Origin: Herpetosiphon sp. NSE202
GTDB taxonomy: Bacteria > Chloroflexota > Chloroflexia > Chloroflexales > Herpetosiphonaceae
Reading direction: 5' to 3'
Assembly (NCBI RefSeq): GCF_042688385.1
Contig: NZ_JBHUPY010000007.1
Coordinates: forward strand, 322,110-386,109
DNA length: 64,000 nt
Below are positions 55,902-64,000 of this stretch, in pieces; the first letter of the stretch is position 1; every line of letters starts with the position of its first letter. The position numbers were made by a program, and so were the translations under genes. The notes under the pieces are model-generated. The model was given only the letters and a program-made list of their open reading frames with translations. It searched no databases and was not told the DNA's origin.

Positions 55902-56906
55902 ATGCAGGGTATTTCGGCTTGGTTGCGCGCAAACCAGCGTTGGGTCATTATTAGTGCGCTTATGTTTGGCTTGGTTGGTTCTGTTGCGGGACAAGCTCCA
56001 CAAACGATTGCTGGCGGCAGCATGAACTATCTGCCAGTTGTCATGTCCAACCCGCTGCTTGATATTCACAATCGCCAATCAGTGGTCAATTTTTATACCA
56101 ATTATTATAAAGTTGGCATGGCTACAGGCTGGACGGGCAATGCCAGCACCTGCACGCCTGGCACGACCAGCCAAGCCTTCCGCGACAATGTGCTAGCCCG
56201 CGTTAATTATTTTCGGCTTTTAGCAGGCATGGGCACTGTTACTTTTGATCCAGTGTTGAATGCCAAAGCGCAGCAAGCAGCCTTGATGATGAGCCGCAAC
56301 CGCACCCTCAACCACTATCCGCCAAGCACATGGCTGTGTTATACGGCCGAGGGCAAAGAAGCAGCTGGTAAATCAAATTTAGCTGGCGGAATTACGGCCA
56401 ATGGTGTTACCGCGATTGAGCTATATATGGACGATAGTGATGAGCCAACTGTGGGGCATCGGCGTTGGTTGCTGTACACGCCAACCCGCAAAATGGGCAC
56501 TGGCGATGTCGATGGCCAAAACGGCACAATTGACGCTAACAGTTTGTGGGTCGTTGGCAATACTGGCCCGCGCCCAGCCACCCGCACCGAATATATCGCT
56601 TGGCCGCCGGCAGGCTTTGTGCCATTTAGCCATGTCGTCAAACGCTGGTCATTTAGCTTGCCTAGCGCTAATTTCGCCAATGCAACGGTTACGATGCAAA
56701 AAGCCAATCAACCGCAAGCCACCACGATTGTTTCGCGCAGCAGTGGCAGCGGTGATAATGCACTTGTGTGGGATGTTGCAGGCTATATCCACTGGCCTGC
56801 GCCTGCAACCGACGTTACCTACACGGTCAATGTAAGCAATGTGGTGCATAACGGCCAAACGCGCTCATTTAGCTACCAAGTCACCGTAATTGACCCAAAT
56901 CGTTAG
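55902..56906 (+). CDS. secreted CAP-domain (SCP/PR-1-like, YkwD-type) protein, paralog 1
   Basis: Signal peptide; ...VNYFRLLAGMGTVTFDPVLNAKAQQAALMMSRNRTLNHYPP...GHRRWLLY, a bacterial CAP pattern. Confidence 0.65.
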   Translation: MQGISAWLRANQRWVIISALMFGLVGSVAGQAPQTIAGGSMNYLPVVMSNPLLDIHNRQSVVNFYTNYYKVGMATGWTGNASTCTPGTTSQAFRDNVLARVNYFRLLAGMGTVTFDPVLNAKAQQAALMMSRNRTLNHYPPSTWLCYTAEGKEAAGKSNLAGGITANGVTAIELYMDDSDEPTVGHRRWLLYTPTRKMGTGDVDGQNGTIDANSLWVVGNTGPRPATRTEYIAWPPAGFVPFSHVVKRWSFSLPSANFANATVTMQKANQPQATTIVSRSSGSGDNALVWDVAGYIHWPAPATDVTYTVNVSNVVHNGQTRSFSYQVTVIDPNR

Positions 56907-56979: not shown

Positions 56980-58008
56980 ATGCAAGTGGCACACGACAGG
57001 CCGCGCAAGCGCTGGCTGGGTTTGGTTATTGCAAGTTTGGTGTTTTTGGGCATCGTTGCCCCGCTTGCAGCCCAAGAACCCCAAGCAATTACTGGTGGCA
57101 GCAAAACCTATTTTCCAGTCGTCACCTCGAACCCTGAGCTTGATATTCACAATCGCCAATCGGTTGTCAATTTTTATACCAATTTCTATTTGCCCAGCAA
57201 TAATGTTACCGATGGCTGGACTGGCAATCAAGCCACATGTGATGCTGGCACAACGAGCCAAGCCTATCGCGATGCGATTCTGCTACGGGTCAATTATTTT
57301 CGTAAAATGGCTGGCCTCGCCGCCGTCACCCTCAACGCAAGCTACAACAGCCAAGCTCAACAAGCAGCATTAATGATGAGTCGCAACAATAGCCTCAACC
57401 ACAATCCGCCAACCTCGTGGGCTTGTTATACCACCACTGGCAAAAATGCCGCTGGTAAATCGAATCTCTATTTAGGCCAACTCGGGCCAGGCGCAATCAC
57501 GGGCTATATGCTCGATCCTGGTGCTGGCAATAGCTCTGCTGGGCATCGGCGCTGGATTCTGTATCCCCAAACCAAATCGATTGGCACTGGCGATGTGCCA
57601 AGCCGCAGCGGCTACGCTGGCTCGAACGCCTTATATGTGATTACCAGCGATTTTGGCACAGCACGGCCTGCCACCCGCACCGAGTATGTGCCTTGGCCGC
57701 CTGAAGGTTTTGTGCCCTATCAAGTCGTGTTTGGGCGCTGGTCGTTCGCCTTGCATAATGGCAATTTTACCAATGCGACTATTAGCATGCGCCAAGGCAG
57801 CACGACGATTCCAGTTACCAAAGAAACCGTTGCCAATGGCTACGGCGAAAATACCATCGTTTGGATTCCGCAGGGCTATAACCATAGCTCAAGTTGGGGC
57901 AATCCGGGTGCAGACACAACCTACACAATTACAATTGGCAATGTGATTGTCAATTCGCAAACACTCAGCTTCACCTATAATGTGACCGTGATTAATCCAA
58001 ATCAATAG
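56980..58008 (+). CDS. secreted CAP-domain protein, paralog 2 (tandem duplicate)
   Basis: Collinear with 55902-56906: ...VNYFRKMAGLAAVTLNASYNSQAQQAALMMSRNNSLNHNPP...GHRRWILYPQ. Confidence 0.65.
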   Translation: MQVAHDRPRKRWLGLVIASLVFLGIVAPLAAQEPQAITGGSKTYFPVVTSNPELDIHNRQSVVNFYTNFYLPSNNVTDGWTGNQATCDAGTTSQAYRDAILLRVNYFRKMAGLAAVTLNASYNSQAQQAALMMSRNNSLNHNPPTSWACYTTTGKNAAGKSNLYLGQLGPGAITGYMLDPGAGNSSAGHRRWILYPQTKSIGTGDVPSRSGYAGSNALYVITSDFGTARPATRTEYVPWPPEGFVPYQVVFGRWSFALHNGNFTNATISMRQGSTTIPVTKETVANGYGENTIVWIPQGYNHSSSWGNPGADTTYTITIGNVIVNSQTLSFTYNVTVINPNQ

Positions 58009-59213: not shown

Positions 59214-59228
59214 AACATAGAACATAAA

Positions 59229-59699
59229 CCGCGAAGGACACGAAGAGCACGAAGGGCGAGGGGTCAGGAATTTGCTTTTAACGCAGAGGCGCAGAGAGTA
59301 AGGATTGGGAGCTGGGGATCAGGGGTCGGGACGCTTGGCTATCGGCTTTTGGCTGAAGGCTATGGGATTAGGAGCCGGGGGTCAGGGGTCGCTTACAAGG
59401 GTAGGTTGTTAAGATCCCCTCACCCCAACCCCTCTCCCGTGGCGCGGGCGAGGGGCTTTAACGTGCTGGTTCTCCCACAATTCCTTGGCGAAACATGGTC
59501 GGCTCCCCCTCGCCCGCGTTCAGTGGGAGAGGGGGTTGGGGGTGAGGGAACGCTCCACTGCCGACCAATCGCTCAAAACCTACCCTTGTAAGGTCAGGGG
59601 TCGGGGATCGGGACGCTTGGCTTTGGGCGAACGGAAGCATAATCCCCATAATCTGTGGCGAAAAAAACTCATCCTTCGCGATCTTCGCGTCCTTCGCGG
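59229..59699. repeat. roughly 470-bp multi-layer palindromic repeat region containing MITE copy F (59416-59550)
   Basis: Outer inverted repeat ccgcgaaggacacgaagagcacgaagg (59229-59255) versus ccttcgcgatcttcgcgtccttcgcgg (59673-59699). Inner perfect 16-bp inverted repeat cttacaagggtaggtt (59392-59407) versus aacctacccttgtaag (59577-59592). Direct repeats gggacgcttggct and G-rich (ggggtc/ggggatc) tracts. Core element copy F carries its own two arms. Confidence 0.6.
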
Positions 59700-59769
59700 T
59701 TTCAGCCATGCGTGAATCAAAACTCCCTAGCCCCTGAATCCTGCTCCCTGAACCCTCGGAAAATCATCA

Positions 59770-59800
59770 CTTGACAAACTGAAATCTGCCTGCTATGCTT
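59770..59800 (+). promoter_or_regulatory. candidate sigma-70-type promoter of the lysine/leucine-type operon
   Basis: TTGACA-17 nt-TATGCT. Confidence 0.3.
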
Positions 59801-59835
59801 CGGCGCAGAACTTTTGATTTGTGGAGTTTGTTGCT

Positions 59836-59922
59836 ATGTTCAGTCAACAATTGATTCTGAACTTGAAAAAACGCAGCGCAAAGAAGCCAGGCAGCGAGTC
59901 TGGTTTATTGCGTCGCGTCTAA
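59836..59922 (+). CDS. candidate Lys-rich leader peptide (28 aa)
   Basis: GGAG 9 nt upstream. MFSQQLILNLKKRSAKKPGSESGLLRRV*, with four Lys in eight residues. Followed at 59952-59984 by a terminator hairpin. Confidence 0.35.
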   Translation: MFSQQLILNLKKRSAKKPGSESGLLRRV

Positions 59923-59951
59923 ACAACACTCCACGCGCTCAATAAACTCAA

Positions 59952-59984
59952 GGCTCGCCGCCATAAACGGCGAGTCTTTTTTTG
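59952..59984 (+). terminator. intrinsic terminator / putative attenuator between the leader ORF and the LeuA-like gene
   Basis: ggctcgccg-ccataaa-cggcgagtc followed by TTTTTTTG. Confidence 0.5.
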
Positions 59985-60119
59985 TACCAAACGTCGGTTT
60001 TGAAAGGATTTTCCCATGGCCACACTCAAGCAACTTAAACGGATTAGCCATCTTCACCGCCCTGCGGCAGTTCGCCCTGAATTGTTCACCGGATGTTCTT
60101 GCGGAAGGATTGTGCTTTC

Positions 60120-61253
60120 ATGACCCGTCAGTTTGCAATTGTTGATACCACCTTGCGCGAAGGCGAACAATGGGCCAACGCCCACTTCAGCAGCGCAGAT
60201 CGCCTAGCCATCGCCAATTTGCTGGTTCAGTTTGGCGTTGAATACATCGAAATGACCTCGCCCTGCGCCTCGCCGCAAAGTGCGGCAGATTTGCGCAGCA
60301 TCGCAGCCTTGCCACTCGGCAATACCAAGCTGCTGACCCATACCCGTTGTAACCTTGAAGACGTACAGCTTGCTGCTGAATGTGGCGTTGCTGGCGTAAA
60401 TATCCTCTTTGGCACCTCACCCTATCTGCGCCAATGGAGCCATGGTCGCTCAATTGAAGCGATTTTGGCCGAAGTTGGCCCGGTTGTGCGTTTCCTCCAA
60501 GAACGGCAGATCGAAGTCCGTTTCTCCTGCGAAGATTCTTTCCGCACTCCCTTGCCCGATTTGTTGCGCGTCTACCAAGCTGTCGATTTGCTTGGCGTGC
60601 AGCGAGTTGGCATCGCCGACACCGTGGGCATTGCCACGCCGCGCGATGTTGAGCGCGTGGTTGGGGCGGTGCGGAATGCAGTTCGCTGCGACATTGAATT
60701 TCACGGCCACAACGATGGCGGCTGTGCAATTGCCAATGCCTATGCAGCACTCGAAGCAGGCGCAACTCACATCGACACAACGATTCTTGGCATTGGCGAA
60801 CGCAACGGCATCGCCGCCCTCAGCGGCCTGATTGCCCGCCTCTACCTCTCCGAACCTGAAAGTGTTGCAGGCTACGCCTTGCCAATGTTGGCCCAACTTG
60901 ATCACACAGTTGCGGCAATCTTGGGCATTCAAGTGCCGTTCAATGCCTGTATCACCAGCGAAACCGCCTTTGCTCACAAAGCAGGCCTGCATACCAAGGC
61001 AGTTTTGGCCAATCCCAGCACCTACGAAGCGATCGATCCCAATGCTTTTGGGCGTGAACGCAACGTGCTTATTGGCCATCGCCTAACTGGCCGCCATGCT
61101 TTGCAAAGCCGCGCTAACGCTCTCGGTTTGGAGCTGAGCGACAGCACGATCGTCGCACTTGCAGCCCAACTCAAAGCTGCCGCCGATGATCAGCCGTTGA
61201 CGCTCGACGAGGTGGATGCGCTGCTGCGCTCAAGCACCCTCCAAGCAGCCTAA
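60120..61253 (+). CDS. homocitrate synthase / 2-isopropylmalate synthase family enzyme (catalytic domain only, no C-terminal regulatory domain)
   Basis: AIVDTTLREGEQ N-terminus, the HxH metal motif (EFHGHND) and the TIM-barrel DRE-TIM pattern. 378 aa, the size typical of HCS/NifV-like enzymes rather than LeuA. GGAAGGA RBS. Confidence 0.8.
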   Translation: MTRQFAIVDTTLREGEQWANAHFSSADRLAIANLLVQFGVEYIEMTSPCASPQSAADLRSIAALPLGNTKLLTHTRCNLEDVQLAAECGVAGVNILFGTSPYLRQWSHGRSIEAILAEVGPVVRFLQERQIEVRFSCEDSFRTPLPDLLRVYQAVDLLGVQRVGIADTVGIATPRDVERVVGAVRNAVRCDIEFHGHNDGGCAIANAYAALEAGATHIDTTILGIGERNGIAALSGLIARLYLSEPESVAGYALPMLAQLDHTVAAILGIQVPFNACITSETAFAHKAGLHTKAVLANPSTYEAIDPNAFGRERNVLIGHRLTGRHALQSRANALGLELSDSTIVALAAQLKAAADDQPLTLDEVDALLRSSTLQAA

Positions 61254-61349
61254 CGATTTTTCGAGCAGGTAATTGAAATTGCTATTTCAATGCCTTGGCT
61301 TGCTATACCTTGATGTGCCATTTTTCAGCAATTTTTGGGAGTTTTTGCA

Positions 61350-62615
61350 ATGGGTCAGACATTTGCCGAGCAAATTTTGGGGCATGCTTCCGGTCGCAAC
61401 GACGTGCAAGCAGGCGATATGGTAGTAGTCAATGTCGATTTGGTGATGATGCACGATAGCCTCTCGCCAAGCATTATCGAGACCTTGCACAACGAATTGG
61501 GCGCTGAACACGTGTGGGATCGCGACAAAGTTGCGGTGGTCATCGACCACGTTGCGCCAGCCGCCACCGTGCGCCAAGCAGAACAACAACAACATGTGCG
61601 ACGTTGGGTCGCGCAACAAGGCATTTCGCATTTGTTTGATGTTGGGCGTGGCATCTCACACCCTGTTTTGATTGAAGAAGGCCTTGTGCAGCCGGGCATG
61701 CTGGTAGTTGGCAGCGATTCGCATAGCACTGGCTATGGCGCGGCGGCGGCATTTGGCTCCGGCATGGGCACAACCGACATCGCACTGGCGCTGGCGACAG
61801 GCCAAACATGGTTTCGGGTGCCAGAAACGGTGCGGGTTAATGCAGTTGGTAATTTTCAACCAGGCGTAAGCGTCAAAGATTTTGGCTTGTGGGCGGCGCG
61901 CACGCTACGAGCTGATGGCGCAACCTATCAAAGCGTCGAGTGGCACGGGGTTGATTTTCTTTCGTGGCGCGAACGCATGACCTTGGCAACCTTGTCGATC
62001 GAGGTCGGAGCCAAGGCCGGAATTGTTGCACCAACAGGCTTGGGCGCTGAACATCCAGTACCAGCGTGGTTGCGAGTCGAGAATGATGCAAGCTATAGCC
62101 GCGTGGTTGAATGCGATTTGAGCACCCTTGAACCCCAAGTCAGCGTGCCACATTATGTCGATAACGTGGTCAATTTGGCTGAGCTTGGGCGAGTCGCGGT
62201 CGATGTGGTTTATCTTGGCACCTGCACCAACGGCCACTACGAAGATATGGCCGCCGCCGCCAGCATTCTCAAGGGGCGGCGTTTGGCTCCGAATGTGCGC
62301 ATGATTGTGGTGCCAGCTTCGAGCGAAAGCCTGCACCGCGCCGCCAGCGATGGCACGTTGGCAACCTTAATTGCTGCAGGGGCGACGATCGGCACGCCTG
62401 GTTGTGGCGCATGCATTGGGCGGCATATGGGCGTGTTGGCTCCCGATGAGGTGTGTGTTTTTACTGGCAATCGCAATTTCCGCGGACGGATGGGCAGTCC
62501 AGGGGCCAACATCTACTTGGCCTCGCCCGAAGTAGCCGCCGCCACCGCCATCACCGGCTACATCACCCACCCGCGCAATGTGCTGCAAAGCACTGAGCAA
62601 GCAGTTTTCGCCTAA
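61350..62615 (+). CDS. 3-isopropylmalate dehydratase / homoaconitase large subunit (aconitase family)
   Basis: MGQTFAEQILGHASG...VVNVDLVMMHD...GSDSHS...CTNG...PGCGACIG, the Fe-S cluster Cys ligands. GGGAG RBS before ATG 61350. Confidence 0.85.
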   Translation: MGQTFAEQILGHASGRNDVQAGDMVVVNVDLVMMHDSLSPSIIETLHNELGAEHVWDRDKVAVVIDHVAPAATVRQAEQQQHVRRWVAQQGISHLFDVGRGISHPVLIEEGLVQPGMLVVGSDSHSTGYGAAAAFGSGMGTTDIALALATGQTWFRVPETVRVNAVGNFQPGVSVKDFGLWAARTLRADGATYQSVEWHGVDFLSWRERMTLATLSIEVGAKAGIVAPTGLGAEHPVPAWLRVENDASYSRVVECDLSTLEPQVSVPHYVDNVVNLAELGRVAVDVVYLGTCTNGHYEDMAAAASILKGRRLAPNVRMIVVPASSESLHRAASDGTLATLIAAGATIGTPGCGACIGRHMGVLAPDEVCVFTGNRNFRGRMGSPGANIYLASPEVAAATAITGYITHPRNVLQSTEQAVFA

Positions 62616-62643: not shown

Positions 62644-63141
62644 ATGCCACGGATTTGGGTTTTTGGAAATGATGTCAACACCGACCAGATGGTTCCAGGC
62701 CGCTATGCCCCCTACATGCTGGGCGCAAACGACGATGTGCGGCGCTATGCCTTTATCGAAGCGCGGCCCGATTTCGCTCCCAATGTTCAGCCAGGCGATT
62801 TGATTATTGCTGGGCCAAATTTTGGCTGTGGCTCAAGCCGCGAGTATGCGCCCTTGGCCTTGAAGCGCTGCGGAGTTGGTGCAGTAATCGCTCCACTGTT
62901 TGCCCGCATTTTCTTCCGCAACGCCTTGAATTTGGGCATTCCCTGCTTTACCGCCGATATTCGCGAGCAAGTTGCCGATGGCGATGTTGTCGATTTTGAT
63001 TTGGCTGCTGGCATGATCAGTAACAATGGCAGCCAGATTCAATTGCCACCACCAGAAAGCTGGATGCGTGAAGTTTGGGCTGAAGGCGGAATTGTGCCGT
63101 TCTATCGTCGCCATGGTCGCTTTCCGACGACAGGAGCCTAA
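62644..63141 (+). CDS. 3-isopropylmalate dehydratase / homoaconitase small subunit
   Basis: MPRIWVFGNDVNTDQMVPGRY (LeuD-type N-terminus) and the GxNFGCGSSRE motif. AGGAG RBS. Confidence 0.8.
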   Translation: MPRIWVFGNDVNTDQMVPGRYAPYMLGANDDVRRYAFIEARPDFAPNVQPGDLIIAGPNFGCGSSREYAPLALKRCGVGAVIAPLFARIFFRNALNLGIPCFTADIREQVADGDVVDFDLAAGMISNNGSQIQLPPPESWMREVWAEGGIVPFYRRHGRFPTTGA

Positions 63142-63143
63142 GC

Positions 63144-64000
63144 ATGACCAGCTTGTGTTTGATTGCCGGCGATGGGATTGGCCGCGAAGTGGTGCAGGCA
63201 GCGCGTCAAGTGCTCGAAGCGTTGGCAGTTCCTGCTGAATTTGTTGAGGCCGAAGCAGGCTGGGAAACCTTCCAGCGCACTGGCAACGCCTTGCCCGAAC
63301 AGACTTTAGCCGCTGTCCAAGCGGCCAATGCAACCTTGTTTGGCGCGGTTAGCTCGCCATCGCAACGAGTTGCTGGCTATCGCAGCCCAATCGTTGGCAT
63401 GCGCAAAGCGCTTGATTTGTATGCCTGTGTGCGGCCAGTTCAAACGCCGCCGTTGGCCAATGCGCGGGCTGGAGTTAATTTGGTGGTGGTACGCGAAAAC
63501 ACCGAAGGGTTGTATAGCGGCCAAGAAACCCGCGAGGGCGATGAACGGGCAACAGCGCAACGGATTATCACGTGTGAAGCCAGCGAGCGGATTGTGCAAT
63601 GGGCAGTGCATTATGCTCAGCGCACTGGCCGCCGCAAAATCACCATCGTGCACAAAGCCAATGTGCTACGCGAAACCTGTGGTTTGTTCCGCGAAACCGC
63701 GCTGCGGGTGTTGTCCGATGCGCCCGATTTGCAGGTTGAAGAAATGTTGGTCGATAACGCAGCCTATCAATTGGCGCGTGCTCCCGAACGTTTTGAAGTG
63801 CTGGTTACCACTAATTTGTTTGGCGATATTCTCTCGGATGTAGCCAGCGTGTGGGGTGGCGGGCTGGGCTTAGCAGCATCGGCCAATTATGGCACCCGCA
63901 CGGCGGTGTTCGAGCCAGTGCACGGCAGCGCCCCAGATATTGCCGGCCAAGGCAGCGCTAATCCATTGGCAACGTTGAGCGCTAGCGTGCTGATGCTGGA
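63144..64000 (+). CDS. isopropylmalate / homoisocitrate dehydrogenase family enzyme (5' part; continues beyond the window end)
   Basis: AGGAG RBS. MTSLCLIAGDGIGREV...LFGAVSSP...NLFGDILSD, the beta-decarboxylating dehydrogenase signature. No stop in the window. Confidence 0.8.
   Translation, partial: MTSLCLIAGDGIGREVVQAARQVLEALAVPAEFVEAEAGWETFQRTGNALPEQTLAAVQAANATLFGAVSSPSQRVAGYRSPIVGMRKALDLYACVRPVQTPPLANARAGVNLVVVRENTEGLYSGQETREGDERATAQRIITCEASERIVQWAVHYAQRTGRRKITIVHKANVLRETCGLFRETALRVLSDAPDLQVEEMLVDNAAYQLARAPERFEVLVTTNLFGDILSDVASVWGGGLGLAASANYGTRTAVFEPVHGSAPDIAGQGSANPLATLSASVLML

Follow-up and report, generated by a model that had tools for sequence, protein, structure and literature searches.

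A probable two-tier 5′ control region at a Herpetosiphon lysine operon: a lysine leader-peptide attenuator followed by a peptide-conserved upstream reading frame

We analysed a stretch of 64,000 nucleotides (hereafter the window) from Herpetosiphon sp. NSE202 (assembly GCF_042688385.1, contig NZ_JBHUPY010000007.1, positions 322,110 to 386,109 of the forward strand). Towards its 3′ end a gene for a putative homocitrate synthase (HCS) is followed by genes for two aconitase-family subunits and a dehydrogenase. The region 5′ of the synthase gene holds a promoter, a short Lys-rich open reading frame (ORF1), an intrinsic terminator, and a second short open reading frame (ORF2) that overlaps the synthase start codon. 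We propose, with a probability of about 0.82, that these features make up a two-tier 5′ control region, in which a lysyl-tRNA-reading attenuator (ORF1) is combined with a translated ORF2 upstream of a lysine operon. A first-pass annotation of the same DNA had suggested a candidate lysine attenuator at this place; it had overlooked the conservation of the Lys leader across Chloroflexota, as well as the presence of ORF2, within the interval it had marked, between the terminator and the synthase gene. Related loci are cited below by their L numbers.

Features of the leader region

From the promoter to the terminator, the following features were found:

59771..59799, + strand: sigma-70-type promoter, TTGACA-17 nt-TG-TATGCT (promoter scan, 10 of 12 matches plus the TG extension)
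59823..59826, + strand: Shine-Dalgarno sequence GGAG, 9 nt 5′ of the ORF1 ATG (read from the sequence)
59836..59922, + strand: leader ORF1, 28 codons plus TAA, MFSQQLILNLKKRSAKKPGSESGLLRRV (read from the sequence; counterparts in relatives)
59866..59871, + strand: first Lys pair, K11-K12, AAA AAA (read from the sequence)
59881..59886, + strand: second Lys pair, K16-K17, AAG AAG, immediately 5′ of segment 1 (the putative regulatory codons)
59884..59906, + strand: segment 1:segment 2 hairpin (anti-antiterminator), -10.8 kcal/mol (folding, and pairing in relatives)
59894..59958, + strand: antiterminator, -28.3 kcal/mol when isolated; arm 59894-59910 (GCGAGUCUGGUUUAUUG) with 59940-59958 (CAAUAAACUCAAGGCUCGC)
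59950..59983, + strand: intrinsic terminator, 11-bp stem (7 G-C), 7-nt loop and U7, -17.6 kcal/mol

Transcription probably starts near 59806, and the arrangement TTGACA...TGCTATRCT is also present in the relatives L001-L003, L069 and L081-L083. The 28-codon ORF with clustered Lys codons described in the first-pass annotation was recovered at 59836-59922, where it carries two Lys-Lys pairs. The terminator announced there was also found, together with its U7 tract, but its dimensions had to be corrected: the stem has 11 pairs instead of 9 bp, the element spans 59950-59983 instead of 59952-59984 (stem-loop 59950-59978, T7 59977-59983), and it begins 27 nt, not 30 nt, past the ORF1 stop codon. Within the leader, segment 1 (CCAGGC, 59887-59892) pairs with segment 2 (GUCUGG, 59898-59903), and the antiterminator sequesters 9 of the 11 bases of the terminator 5′ arm (59950-59958). 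The leader RNA fold is stable when compared with dinucleotide shuffles (z = -4.4).

The window gave no Rfam match either at gathering scores or at E ≤10, and the top match of a permissive search was an unrelated small RNA model (24 bits against a gathering score of 50). With the gathering score or E ≤10 as the limit, the window yielded neither the lysine riboswitch RF00168 nor a T-box, and the same search recovers RF00168 in 9 related loci. In the minimum free energy (MFE) fold of the window, the ORF1 Shine-Dalgarno region (59821-59833) pairs with 59924-59934, just past the ORF1 stop codon, and L003 has a counterpart of this pairing (GAGAGUUU/AAACUCUC). Such a pairing could limit the leader to a single round of translation; this helix is not claimed here, because its duplex energies, in the window and in 15 relatives, were no better than those of shuffled sequences.

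Identity of the operon

The genes downstream of the leader region are the following:

60120..61253, + strand: homocitrate synthase, 377 amino acids (aa) (NCBIfam models, domains, and scores to solved structures)
61350..62615, + strand: homoaconitase large subunit (NF001614, 547 bits; TIGR01343 hacA_fam, 512 bits against a cut-off of 386)
62644..63141, + strand: homoaconitase small subunit, 165 aa (equivalog NF010629, 251 bits against a cut-off of 229)
63144..64000, + strand: homoisocitrate dehydrogenase-like gene, interrupted by the end of the window (TIGR02088, 345 bits; AksF2, 320 bits)

The large subunit is likely to start at the ATG at 61350, and the mechanical ORF begins at a TTG at 61335. 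The truncated dehydrogenase matches best TIGR02088, a subfamily of isopropylmalate/isohomocitrate dehydrogenases, and next the AksF models for homoisocitrate dehydrogenase. These NCBIfam matches bear out the earlier description of aconitase-family large and small subunits and a dehydrogenase behind the synthase. The synthase itself contains an HMGL-like domain and an HCS_D2 post-HMGL domain, and the LeuA C-terminal regulatory domain was not found in it, as had been stated; its length is 377 aa, one residue below the 378 aa given before. Its top NCBIfam match is TIGR02146, homocitrate synthase, with 409 bits (slightly below the cut-off of 413.6), and the runner-up scores 293 bits. A look-up of the exact synthase sequence gave no record.

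The attenuator could also belong to a leucine (LeuABCD) operon, an alternative that the first-pass annotation itself had put forward. In that case the synthase would be a 2-isopropylmalate synthase and the Leu codons of ORF1 would do the sensing. The enzymes do come from the LeuA, LeuCD and LeuB superfamilies, and the Herpetosiphon ORF1 has 5 Leu in its 28 codons. However, the synthase scores threefold higher to homocitrate than to isopropylmalate synthases: among solved structures it reached 405 bits with Schizosaccharomyces pombe HCS and 401 bits with Thermus thermophilus HCS, and at most 134 bits with any isopropylmalate synthase. On these scores the synthase clade, which had been named earlier as a check, speaks for lysine, and the absence of the LeuA regulatory domain points the same way. 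The small subunit passes the homoaconitase equivalog.

A second proposed check concerned genes of the LysW pathway. These would fall past the end of the window, and they were read from close relatives, the window synthase sharing 99% identity with its counterpart in Herpetosiphon llansteffanensis (L001) and 97% with the one in H. aurantiacus DSM 785 (L002). At the syntenic locus of H. aurantiacus, a full-length orthologue of the dehydrogenase is directly followed by LysW, LysX, LysY, LysZ, LysJ and LysK. LysW (75 bits against a cut-off of 53), LysX (333/276), LysZ (416/223) and LysK (451/363) pass their equivalog models, whereas LysY passes the related ArgC model only and LysJ a broader ArgD-family model. 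LysW (with the C-terminus EDWGE), LysX and LysY likewise lie downstream in H. llansteffanensis. Two further points speak against leucine: in other lineages the Leu codons of the leader are not conserved while the Lys codons are, and lysine riboswitches occur on orthologous operons (both described below). On the enzyme identities, the lysW-K neighbours and the conservation of the Lys codons, we regard the leucine-operon reading as refuted. Since the synthase has HCS-type scores, the small subunit passes a homoaconitase equivalog, and lysW-K lie directly downstream in close relatives, we assign the operon, by sequence comparison, to the alpha-aminoadipate/LysW pathway of lysine biosynthesis.

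Conservation of the leader across Chloroflexota

To follow the leader beyond Herpetosiphon, 80 loci encoding relatives of the synthase were collected, most of them labelled Chloroflexota. An ORF scan revealed in many of the 80 a short upstream ORF with a Lys-rich end, followed by a stem-loop and a T-run. Examples of these endings are ...KQSKRAKKPDxxSG, ...KQSKAKKPDAHVW and ...KSKKQKPD, each followed by the stop codon. The start and the stop of the ORF are retained in all lineages, its N-terminal half is free to vary, and in nearly all lineages the stop codon falls in or beside segment 2. The motifs keep a constant order: AAR AAR, then CCGGAC (segment 1), a few bases, GUCUGG (segment 2), and CCAGAC (segment 3) within the 5′ half of the terminator. 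GUCUGG can pair either back with CCGGAC or forward with CCAGAC, and this gives the 1:2, 2:3, 3:4 logic of an attenuator. In alignments of 23 sequences, positions 1 and 2 of the codons of the second Lys pair are invariant or nearly so and position 3 is A or G; since this variation is confined to the wobble base, it is the signature of a coding sequence and not of base pairing.

The helices were then evaluated by counting pairs. In a MAFFT alignment of 23 leaders, the "off" structure (1:2 plus the lower terminator stem) was 90% paired, against 25-51% when the 3′ partners were slid, and the "on" structure (2:3) was 78% paired (77-78% with the model-derived alignment below included), against 20-41%. 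For segment 1:2, 92-96% of the cells were paired across relatives, against 20-51% after sliding. A covariance model was built from 23 leaders, all Herpetosiphon sequences being excluded. When both strands of the 64-kb window were searched with it, the single significant match was 59844-59981 (31.2 bits, E ~1e-5), and on the window plus 83 related loci it gave 56 matches (55 outside the window), all on the operon strand and each fronting a lysine operon. In the alignment of 56 sequences derived from this model, segment 1:2 was 95.7% paired, and the lower terminator stem was 90.5% paired, with compensatory changes at 7 of 7 pairs. The six pairs of the antiterminator core GUCUGG:CCAGAC form in 43-53 of the 56 sequences, with at most two sequences unpaired (>94% of cells). 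All three helices are backed by pairing counts, and the terminator by compensatory changes as well. In Herpetosiphonaceae the antiterminator is shifted. The window pairs GCGAGUCU with AGGCUCGC and UUUAUUG with CAAUAAA, and the same two blocks of L003 read GCGGGUC/GACCCGC and GCGUUUG/CAAACGC; both sides have changed between the window and L003, so that the antiterminator pairing has been kept. The alternative fold that had been proposed as a check on the attenuator is thus present and has comparative support, and the candidate lysine (alpha-aminoadipate) attenuator is strengthened by the sole significant match in the window, the conserved AAR AAR and the alternative helices.

In two loci the order of the operon is different and the synthase gene comes last. 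There (L069, 4100-4500; L024, 4318-4485) the Lys leader and terminator lie ~5.7 kb 5′ of the synthase gene and front lysW; therefore, the leader tracks the 5′ end of the operon and not the synthase gene. In L069 the leader ATG follows the -10 box after only ~10 nt, and the leader ORF may thus be almost leaderless. Five metagenome-assembled genomes labelled as other groups (L004, Actinomycetota; L010, Gracilibacteria; L035, Proteobacteria; L043, Bathyarchaeia; L054, Mariniblastus) have lysine loci of the Chloroflexota type. Among them L004 and L010 carry the Chloroflexota leader element, and L010 additionally has an ORF2 with the RPELF motif described below. This points to binning contamination or mislabelling of these genomes rather than wide transfer.

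In a rival explanation, ribosomes do not read the ORF1 region at all. It would act as a riboswitch or as a leader bound by a protein, or be a gene for a small RNA, with the Lys-rich ORF present by accident. Promoter and terminator indeed bound a transcript of ~180 nt with the stable fold noted above, GUCUGG and CCAGAC are conserved as nucleotides, and some Chloroflexus leaders are without an obvious Shine-Dalgarno sequence. Nevertheless, Rfam had nothing to offer even at the permissive threshold, and the coding features described here (an ORF whose ends are kept while its N-terminal half varies, Lys codons kept as AAR with a wobble pattern, and a stop codon in or near segment 2 in nearly all lineages) would be left without a cause, as would the same layout in Thermus. 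We consider a non-ribosomal element quite improbable.

Our literature searches turned up no previous account of the Chloroflexota leader element, and no leader-peptide model of NCBIfam matches the ORF1 leader. As far as sequences can tell, it is a lysine leader-peptide attenuator of the Thermus kind, yet in a distinct and widely conserved Chloroflexota form that lies outside Rfam.

A second upstream ORF overlaps the synthase gene

The interval between the terminator and the synthase gene is occupied by ORF2, whose ATG lies 33 nt past the U-tract:

60003..60008, + strand: Shine-Dalgarno sequence AAAGGA, 7 nt 5′ of the ORF2 ATG (read from the sequence)
60016..60123, + strand: ORF2, 35 codons plus TGA, MATLKQLKRISHLHRPAAVRPELFTGCSCGRIVLS; the TGA overlaps the HCS ATG (ATGA, 60120-60123)
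60061..60108, + strand: conserved peptide core of ORF2, PAAVRPELFTGCSCGR (family: TPRxxRPELFG(A/S)CQVR)
60103..60109, + strand: HCS Shine-Dalgarno sequence GGAAGGA, 10 nt 5′ of the HCS ATG, inside the last codons of the ORF2 core

ORF2 is present in all the Herpetosiphon, Chloroflexus, Oscillochloris and Chloroflexaceae loci, with the core (Y)TPRxCRPELFG(S/A)CQVR, and a Shine-Dalgarno sequence precedes it in nearly all of the 19 loci inspected. It is absent in Anaerolineae and Caldilineae, where the terminator lies ~50 nt from the synthase gene, and in Thermus. A profile search of 5.8 billion proteins yielded 54 clusters of the ORF2 family, with lengths of 31-65 aa, all annotated as "hypothetical" and none with a Pfam domain. 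An exhaustive search of 1.84 billion representatives with a hidden Markov model gave 24 matches, all of 31-62 aa; the motif is therefore not a piece of a larger protein. Three divergent members were looked up, and all of them lie directly 5′ of an HMGL-like/HCS_D2 gene with an overlap of 14-23 nt, with aconitase subunits and a dehydrogenase downstream and the ORF1 leader and terminator upstream. ORF2 had no match in Pfam or NCBIfam at E ≤10, and no earlier description of the motif was found in the literature searched.

The invariant R, P, E, L and F of the core are encoded by 4, 4, 2, 3 and 2 different codons, respectively, and the mean entropy at codon positions 1/2/3 is 0.63/0.53/1.17. Both the codon variety and the third-position entropy indicate that selection acts on the peptide. 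RNAalifold found no consensus structure in ORF2 (-1.07 kcal/mol). AlphaFold predicted a lone helix of 4 residues, with a predicted local distance difference test score (pLDDT) of 62.9 and a predicted template modelling score (pTM) of 0.23. An antisense or alternative-frame gene as the cause of the conservation was rejected, since the ORF2 frame is the sole frame, on either strand, that is open in 22 of 22 sequences. A frameshift fusion of ORF2 with the synthase was also discarded, because the frame offset varies by lineage (+1 in Chloroflexus, +2 in the window). The last codons of the core, TGT CAA GTG AGA, are nearly fixed as nucleotides and lie 10-13 nt before the synthase ATG across lineages, so they double as the Shine-Dalgarno region of the synthase. 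ORF2 thus appears to be a previously undescribed, peptide-conserved reading frame that overlaps the start of the first gene and is combined with the attenuator in Chloroflexia.

Seven Chloroflexia-like loci (L004-L009 and L011) have an ORF1 leader and terminator and, within the 100-190 nt before the synthase start, a different second upstream ORF with its own Shine-Dalgarno sequence. This ORF overlaps the synthase start and is without the RPELF core; most of these ORFs share an N-terminal S-K-R motif, and an extra T-run lies within the ORF in L004, L007 and L008.

Because ribosomes on the 3′ part of ORF2 cover the ribosome-binding site of HCS, ORF2 must affect translation of the synthase, and the selection on its peptide suggests that the nascent or the released peptide probably matters. 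The effect on HCS would be exerted by termination-reinitiation coupling or by occlusion. We distinguish three readings of the role of ORF2, which are about equally likely.

ORF2 may be a mere coupling device, in which termination and reinitiation open or feed the ribosome-binding site of HCS and the peptide has no role. The ATGA overlap in the window, the overlaps of 4-17 nt elsewhere, and the unrelated upstream ORFs that the seven Chloroflexia-like loci have in the same place would be expected of such a device. It leaves unexplained, however, why R-P-E-L-F is invariant although its codons vary freely, and why a core of 16 residues is kept across Chloroflexus, Oscillochloris, Herpetosiphon and many metagenomic lineages. 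For these reasons we give this reading slightly less credit than the two that follow, which alone account for the conservation of the peptide.

It is conceivable that ORF2 yields a free, trans-acting micropeptide, for instance a partner or regulator of HCS or of another lysine enzyme, and that the overlap serves only for co-expression. The purifying selection is indeed at the level of amino acids, ORF2 has its own start codon and Shine-Dalgarno sequence in nearly every locus inspected, its synteny with the synthase gene is strict, and one or two Cys are conserved. But the conserved stretch has only 16 residues, with 4 to 14 residues after it, the structure prediction offers little beyond its short helix, the first Cys of the Chloroflexus motif is missing in Herpetosiphon, and Anaerolineae, Caldilineae and Thermus have the pathway without ORF2. 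This proposal is, in our view, a tentative one.

The third reading, which concerns the second tier only and which we hold just as tentatively, is that ORF2 encodes an arrest peptide which, like TnaC or SpeFL, senses a metabolite, the ligand in the exit tunnel being free lysine or an intermediate of the pathway. A stall after ...RPELFGxCQVR would block the ribosome-binding site of HCS or change the access of Rho. In its favour, selection is on the 16-residue core, while the N- and C-terminal flanks differ between members in sequence as well as length; only 10-13 nt separate the end of the core from the synthase ATG in all lineages, so that a ribosome held at the core would cover the Shine-Dalgarno sequence and the start; ORF2 has neither a conserved RNA structure nor a confident fold, and the family is confined to one genomic position. 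Against it, ORF2 is not similar to known arrest peptides or to NCBIfam leader models, the nucleotide conservation of TGT CAA GTG AGA may merely be that of the synthase Shine-Dalgarno region, and Herpetosiphon is off the consensus, with FTGCSCGR in place of FGxCQVR.

Few bacterial upstream ORFs with a conserved peptide are known, and several of them turned out to be sensors of small molecules. Like TnaC (tryptophan), SpeFL (ornithine) and the fungal arginine attenuator peptide, ORF2 is a short upstream ORF in which the amino acids, and not the RNA, are conserved, and its pause site would likewise control an adjacent gene of an amino-acid pathway. It differs from them in that there is no sequence similarity and that arrest at ORF2 is only proposed. 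Moreover, the distance from the core to the stop codon varies, so that any pause would be internal, unlike those of TnaC and the arginine attenuator peptide, which are at the stop codon. It is possible, though doubtful at present, that ORF2 founds a new family of regulatory nascent peptides, shared by Chloroflexales and Herpetosiphonales, in which a pause at the core occludes the HCS start.

Ribosome position and the two-tier model

The response of the leader to a translating ribosome was analysed by folding. The ribosome was modelled as a 28-nt unpaired block, and equilibrium minimum-energy folds were calculated. With the A-site at K16 (mask 59866-59893), the MFE fold had 8 of 8 tracked antiterminator pairs and 0 of 11 terminator pairs. 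All 11 terminator pairs of the window stayed in place when no ribosome was modelled, and also when the A-site was put at K12 or on the stop codon. Of 35 relatives, every one kept its terminator with a ribosome on the stop codon, and 16 lost it when the ribosome was moved to the last Lys pair. These folds favour the proposed direction of the switch without proving it.

From this anatomy, its conservation and the direction of the switch, we infer that termination depends on lysine, and we propose the following two-tier model. In the first tier, RNA polymerase would start near 59806 and a ribosome would translate the 28-codon ORF1. When lysine is scarce, the ribosome would wait at AAG AAG (59881-59886) and cover segment 1 (CCAGGC); the freed segment 2 arm would then pair with 59940-59958, which includes most of the terminator 5′ arm, and transcription would continue into the operon. 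With ample lysine, the ribosome would reach the stop codon, the 1:2 hairpin would close, the terminator at 59950-59983 would form, and transcription would stop. In the second tier, a ribosome on the 3′ part of ORF2 would occupy the ribosome-binding site of HCS.

Several observations weigh against the two-tier model. With the A-site at K17 the terminator remains the MFE fold of the window; since K16 and K17 give different outcomes, the switching seen in the window hinges on the ribosome footprint chosen. In 19 of the 35 relatives the terminator is kept at equilibrium despite a ribosome at the Lys pair. These have very stable terminators, and there the choice must be kinetic, made during transcription, which is also how other attenuators work. 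The Lys codons are only two to four, below the runs found in his or phe leaders. The antiterminator core is nearly invariant, and 7-19 of 500 shuffles reach the observed covariation score, so that it is backed by conservation and by its lineage-specific extensions more than by covariation. Finally, no confident fold was obtained for ORF2 with AlphaFold, a result that is neutral as to its role.

Comparison with Thermus and with classical attenuators

The loci of Thermus (L085, L086) and Oceanithermus were recovered through their synthases. Upstream of the Thermus HCS gene we found TTGACA...TATATC, a 14-codon ORF (MLAREKKLGRRGLG, followed by a stop codon) and a terminator, and in Oceanithermus MKYREAKKLYAGGAG, again with its stop codon, and then a terminator. 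Nothing comparable was found upstream of the synthase gene of Deinococcus maricopensis. Presumably, the leader that we recovered from Thermus is the lysine attenuator that has been characterised experimentally. The leader of the major lysine cluster of T. thermophilus was reportedly shown by Tsubouchi and colleagues, in 2005, to depend on its leader peptide. Lysine-sensing attenuators of the leader-peptide type are rare, and to our knowledge that of Thermus is the only one characterised.

The Herpetosiphon and Thermus elements have in common the alpha-aminoadipate pathway, HCS as the first gene, a sigma-70 promoter, a short ORF, an intrinsic terminator, two adjacent Lys codons placed 6-8 codons ahead of the stop, and stalling at Lys codons that would favour an antiterminator. 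They differ in several respects: the Chloroflexota have their own motifs, AAR AAR CCGGAC ... GUCUGG ... CCAGAC; ORF1 of the window is twice as long as its Thermus counterpart and has two Lys pairs; and in Thermus the synthase gene directly follows the terminator, whereas in the window the conserved-peptide ORF2 stands between them. The covariance model found no match at E ≤0.01 in the loci L085, L087 and L088, so that only the layout is shared; this lowers the claim of homology, but not that of a likeness in the way of working. In one Thermus locus (L085, 2777-3479) small genes for LysW-like zinc-ribbon proteins, and lysX, come after the synthase gene, and in another (L086, with an identical synthase) a HicA/HicB toxin-antitoxin pair lies between the synthase and homoaconitase genes.

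The leaders of the trp, his, leu, thr and phe operons of Proteobacteria have the same four segments (1:2, 2:3, 3:4); in them, too, the regulatory codons border segment 1 on its 5′ side, and the stop codon lies close to segment 2. They differ from the Herpetosiphon element in amino acid, phylum and sequence, and the latter has few regulatory codons. When the Rfam leader families were compared with the window, the top score was that of Thr_leader, 15.7 bits against a gathering score of 55.

Other lysine sensors at the same position

In 9 loci, mostly from Limnocylindria and unclassified Chloroflexota metagenome-assembled genomes, the lysine riboswitch RF00168 lies directly 5′ of the orthologous synthase gene (38-93 bits against a gathering score of 30):

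L022: 2059-2244, RF00168
L043: 2486-2672, RF00168
L070: 1590-1775, RF00168
L041: 4803-4988, RF00168
L032: 4728-4909, RF00168
L037: 1793-1975, RF00168
L042: 5312-5494, RF00168
L050: 161-343, RF00168
L026: 1-132, RF00168

In one further locus (L061, 8387-8638) a T-box lies 5′ of the synthase gene (88.2 bits, slightly below the gathering score of 93; E = 6e-20), and its specifier would be AAG (Lys), to judge from GAA-C-AAG-A in the alignment. The region upstream of the synthase gene in L035 resembles this T-box region. Riboswitch, T-box and leader occupy the same place 5′ of orthologous HCS operons, and their lysine-dependent output is presumably alike. They differ in that in the first two the RNA itself senses lysine or the tRNA, and the window has neither. 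Since a leader peptide, a riboswitch and a T-box front one operon, at least three lysine sensors are used in one phylum.

Sequences upstream of the lysine promoter

Nested inverted repeats fill the spacer between a glycosyltransferase gene and the lysine promoter (59226-59702). Their arms are of 35 nt (59226-59260/59668-59702), of 16 nt and perfect (59392-59407/59577-59592), and G/C-rich (59416-59438/59525-59547), and the spacer also has direct repeats of the type GGGGTCGGG. L001 and L002 have other sequences 5′ of the -35 box, and the spacer may therefore be a mobile or a repetitive extragenic palindromic (REP)-like insertion. Further upstream lie two tandem paralogues (55902-56906 and 56980-58008; 334 and 342 aa) with signal-peptide-like N-termini. 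They share the blocks IHNRQSVVNFYTN, MMSRN and GHRRW and look like secreted proteins of the CAP/SCP type.

Implications

The logic of the Thermus-type lysine leader seems to be the prevailing control of the alpha-aminoadipate/LysW operon in several Chloroflexota classes. Its RNA motif is well defined, is missing from Rfam and is suitable as a new family. With a leader peptide, a riboswitch and a T-box on one operon, the phylum offers a natural set for studying how one regulator replaces another. ORF2 is a short peptide under clear purifying selection and a candidate regulatory upstream ORF. If it proves to be a regulatory nascent peptide, the operon would be doubly controlled in series, by lysyl-tRNA via ORF1 and by a metabolite, free lysine or a pathway intermediate, via the ORF2 peptide.

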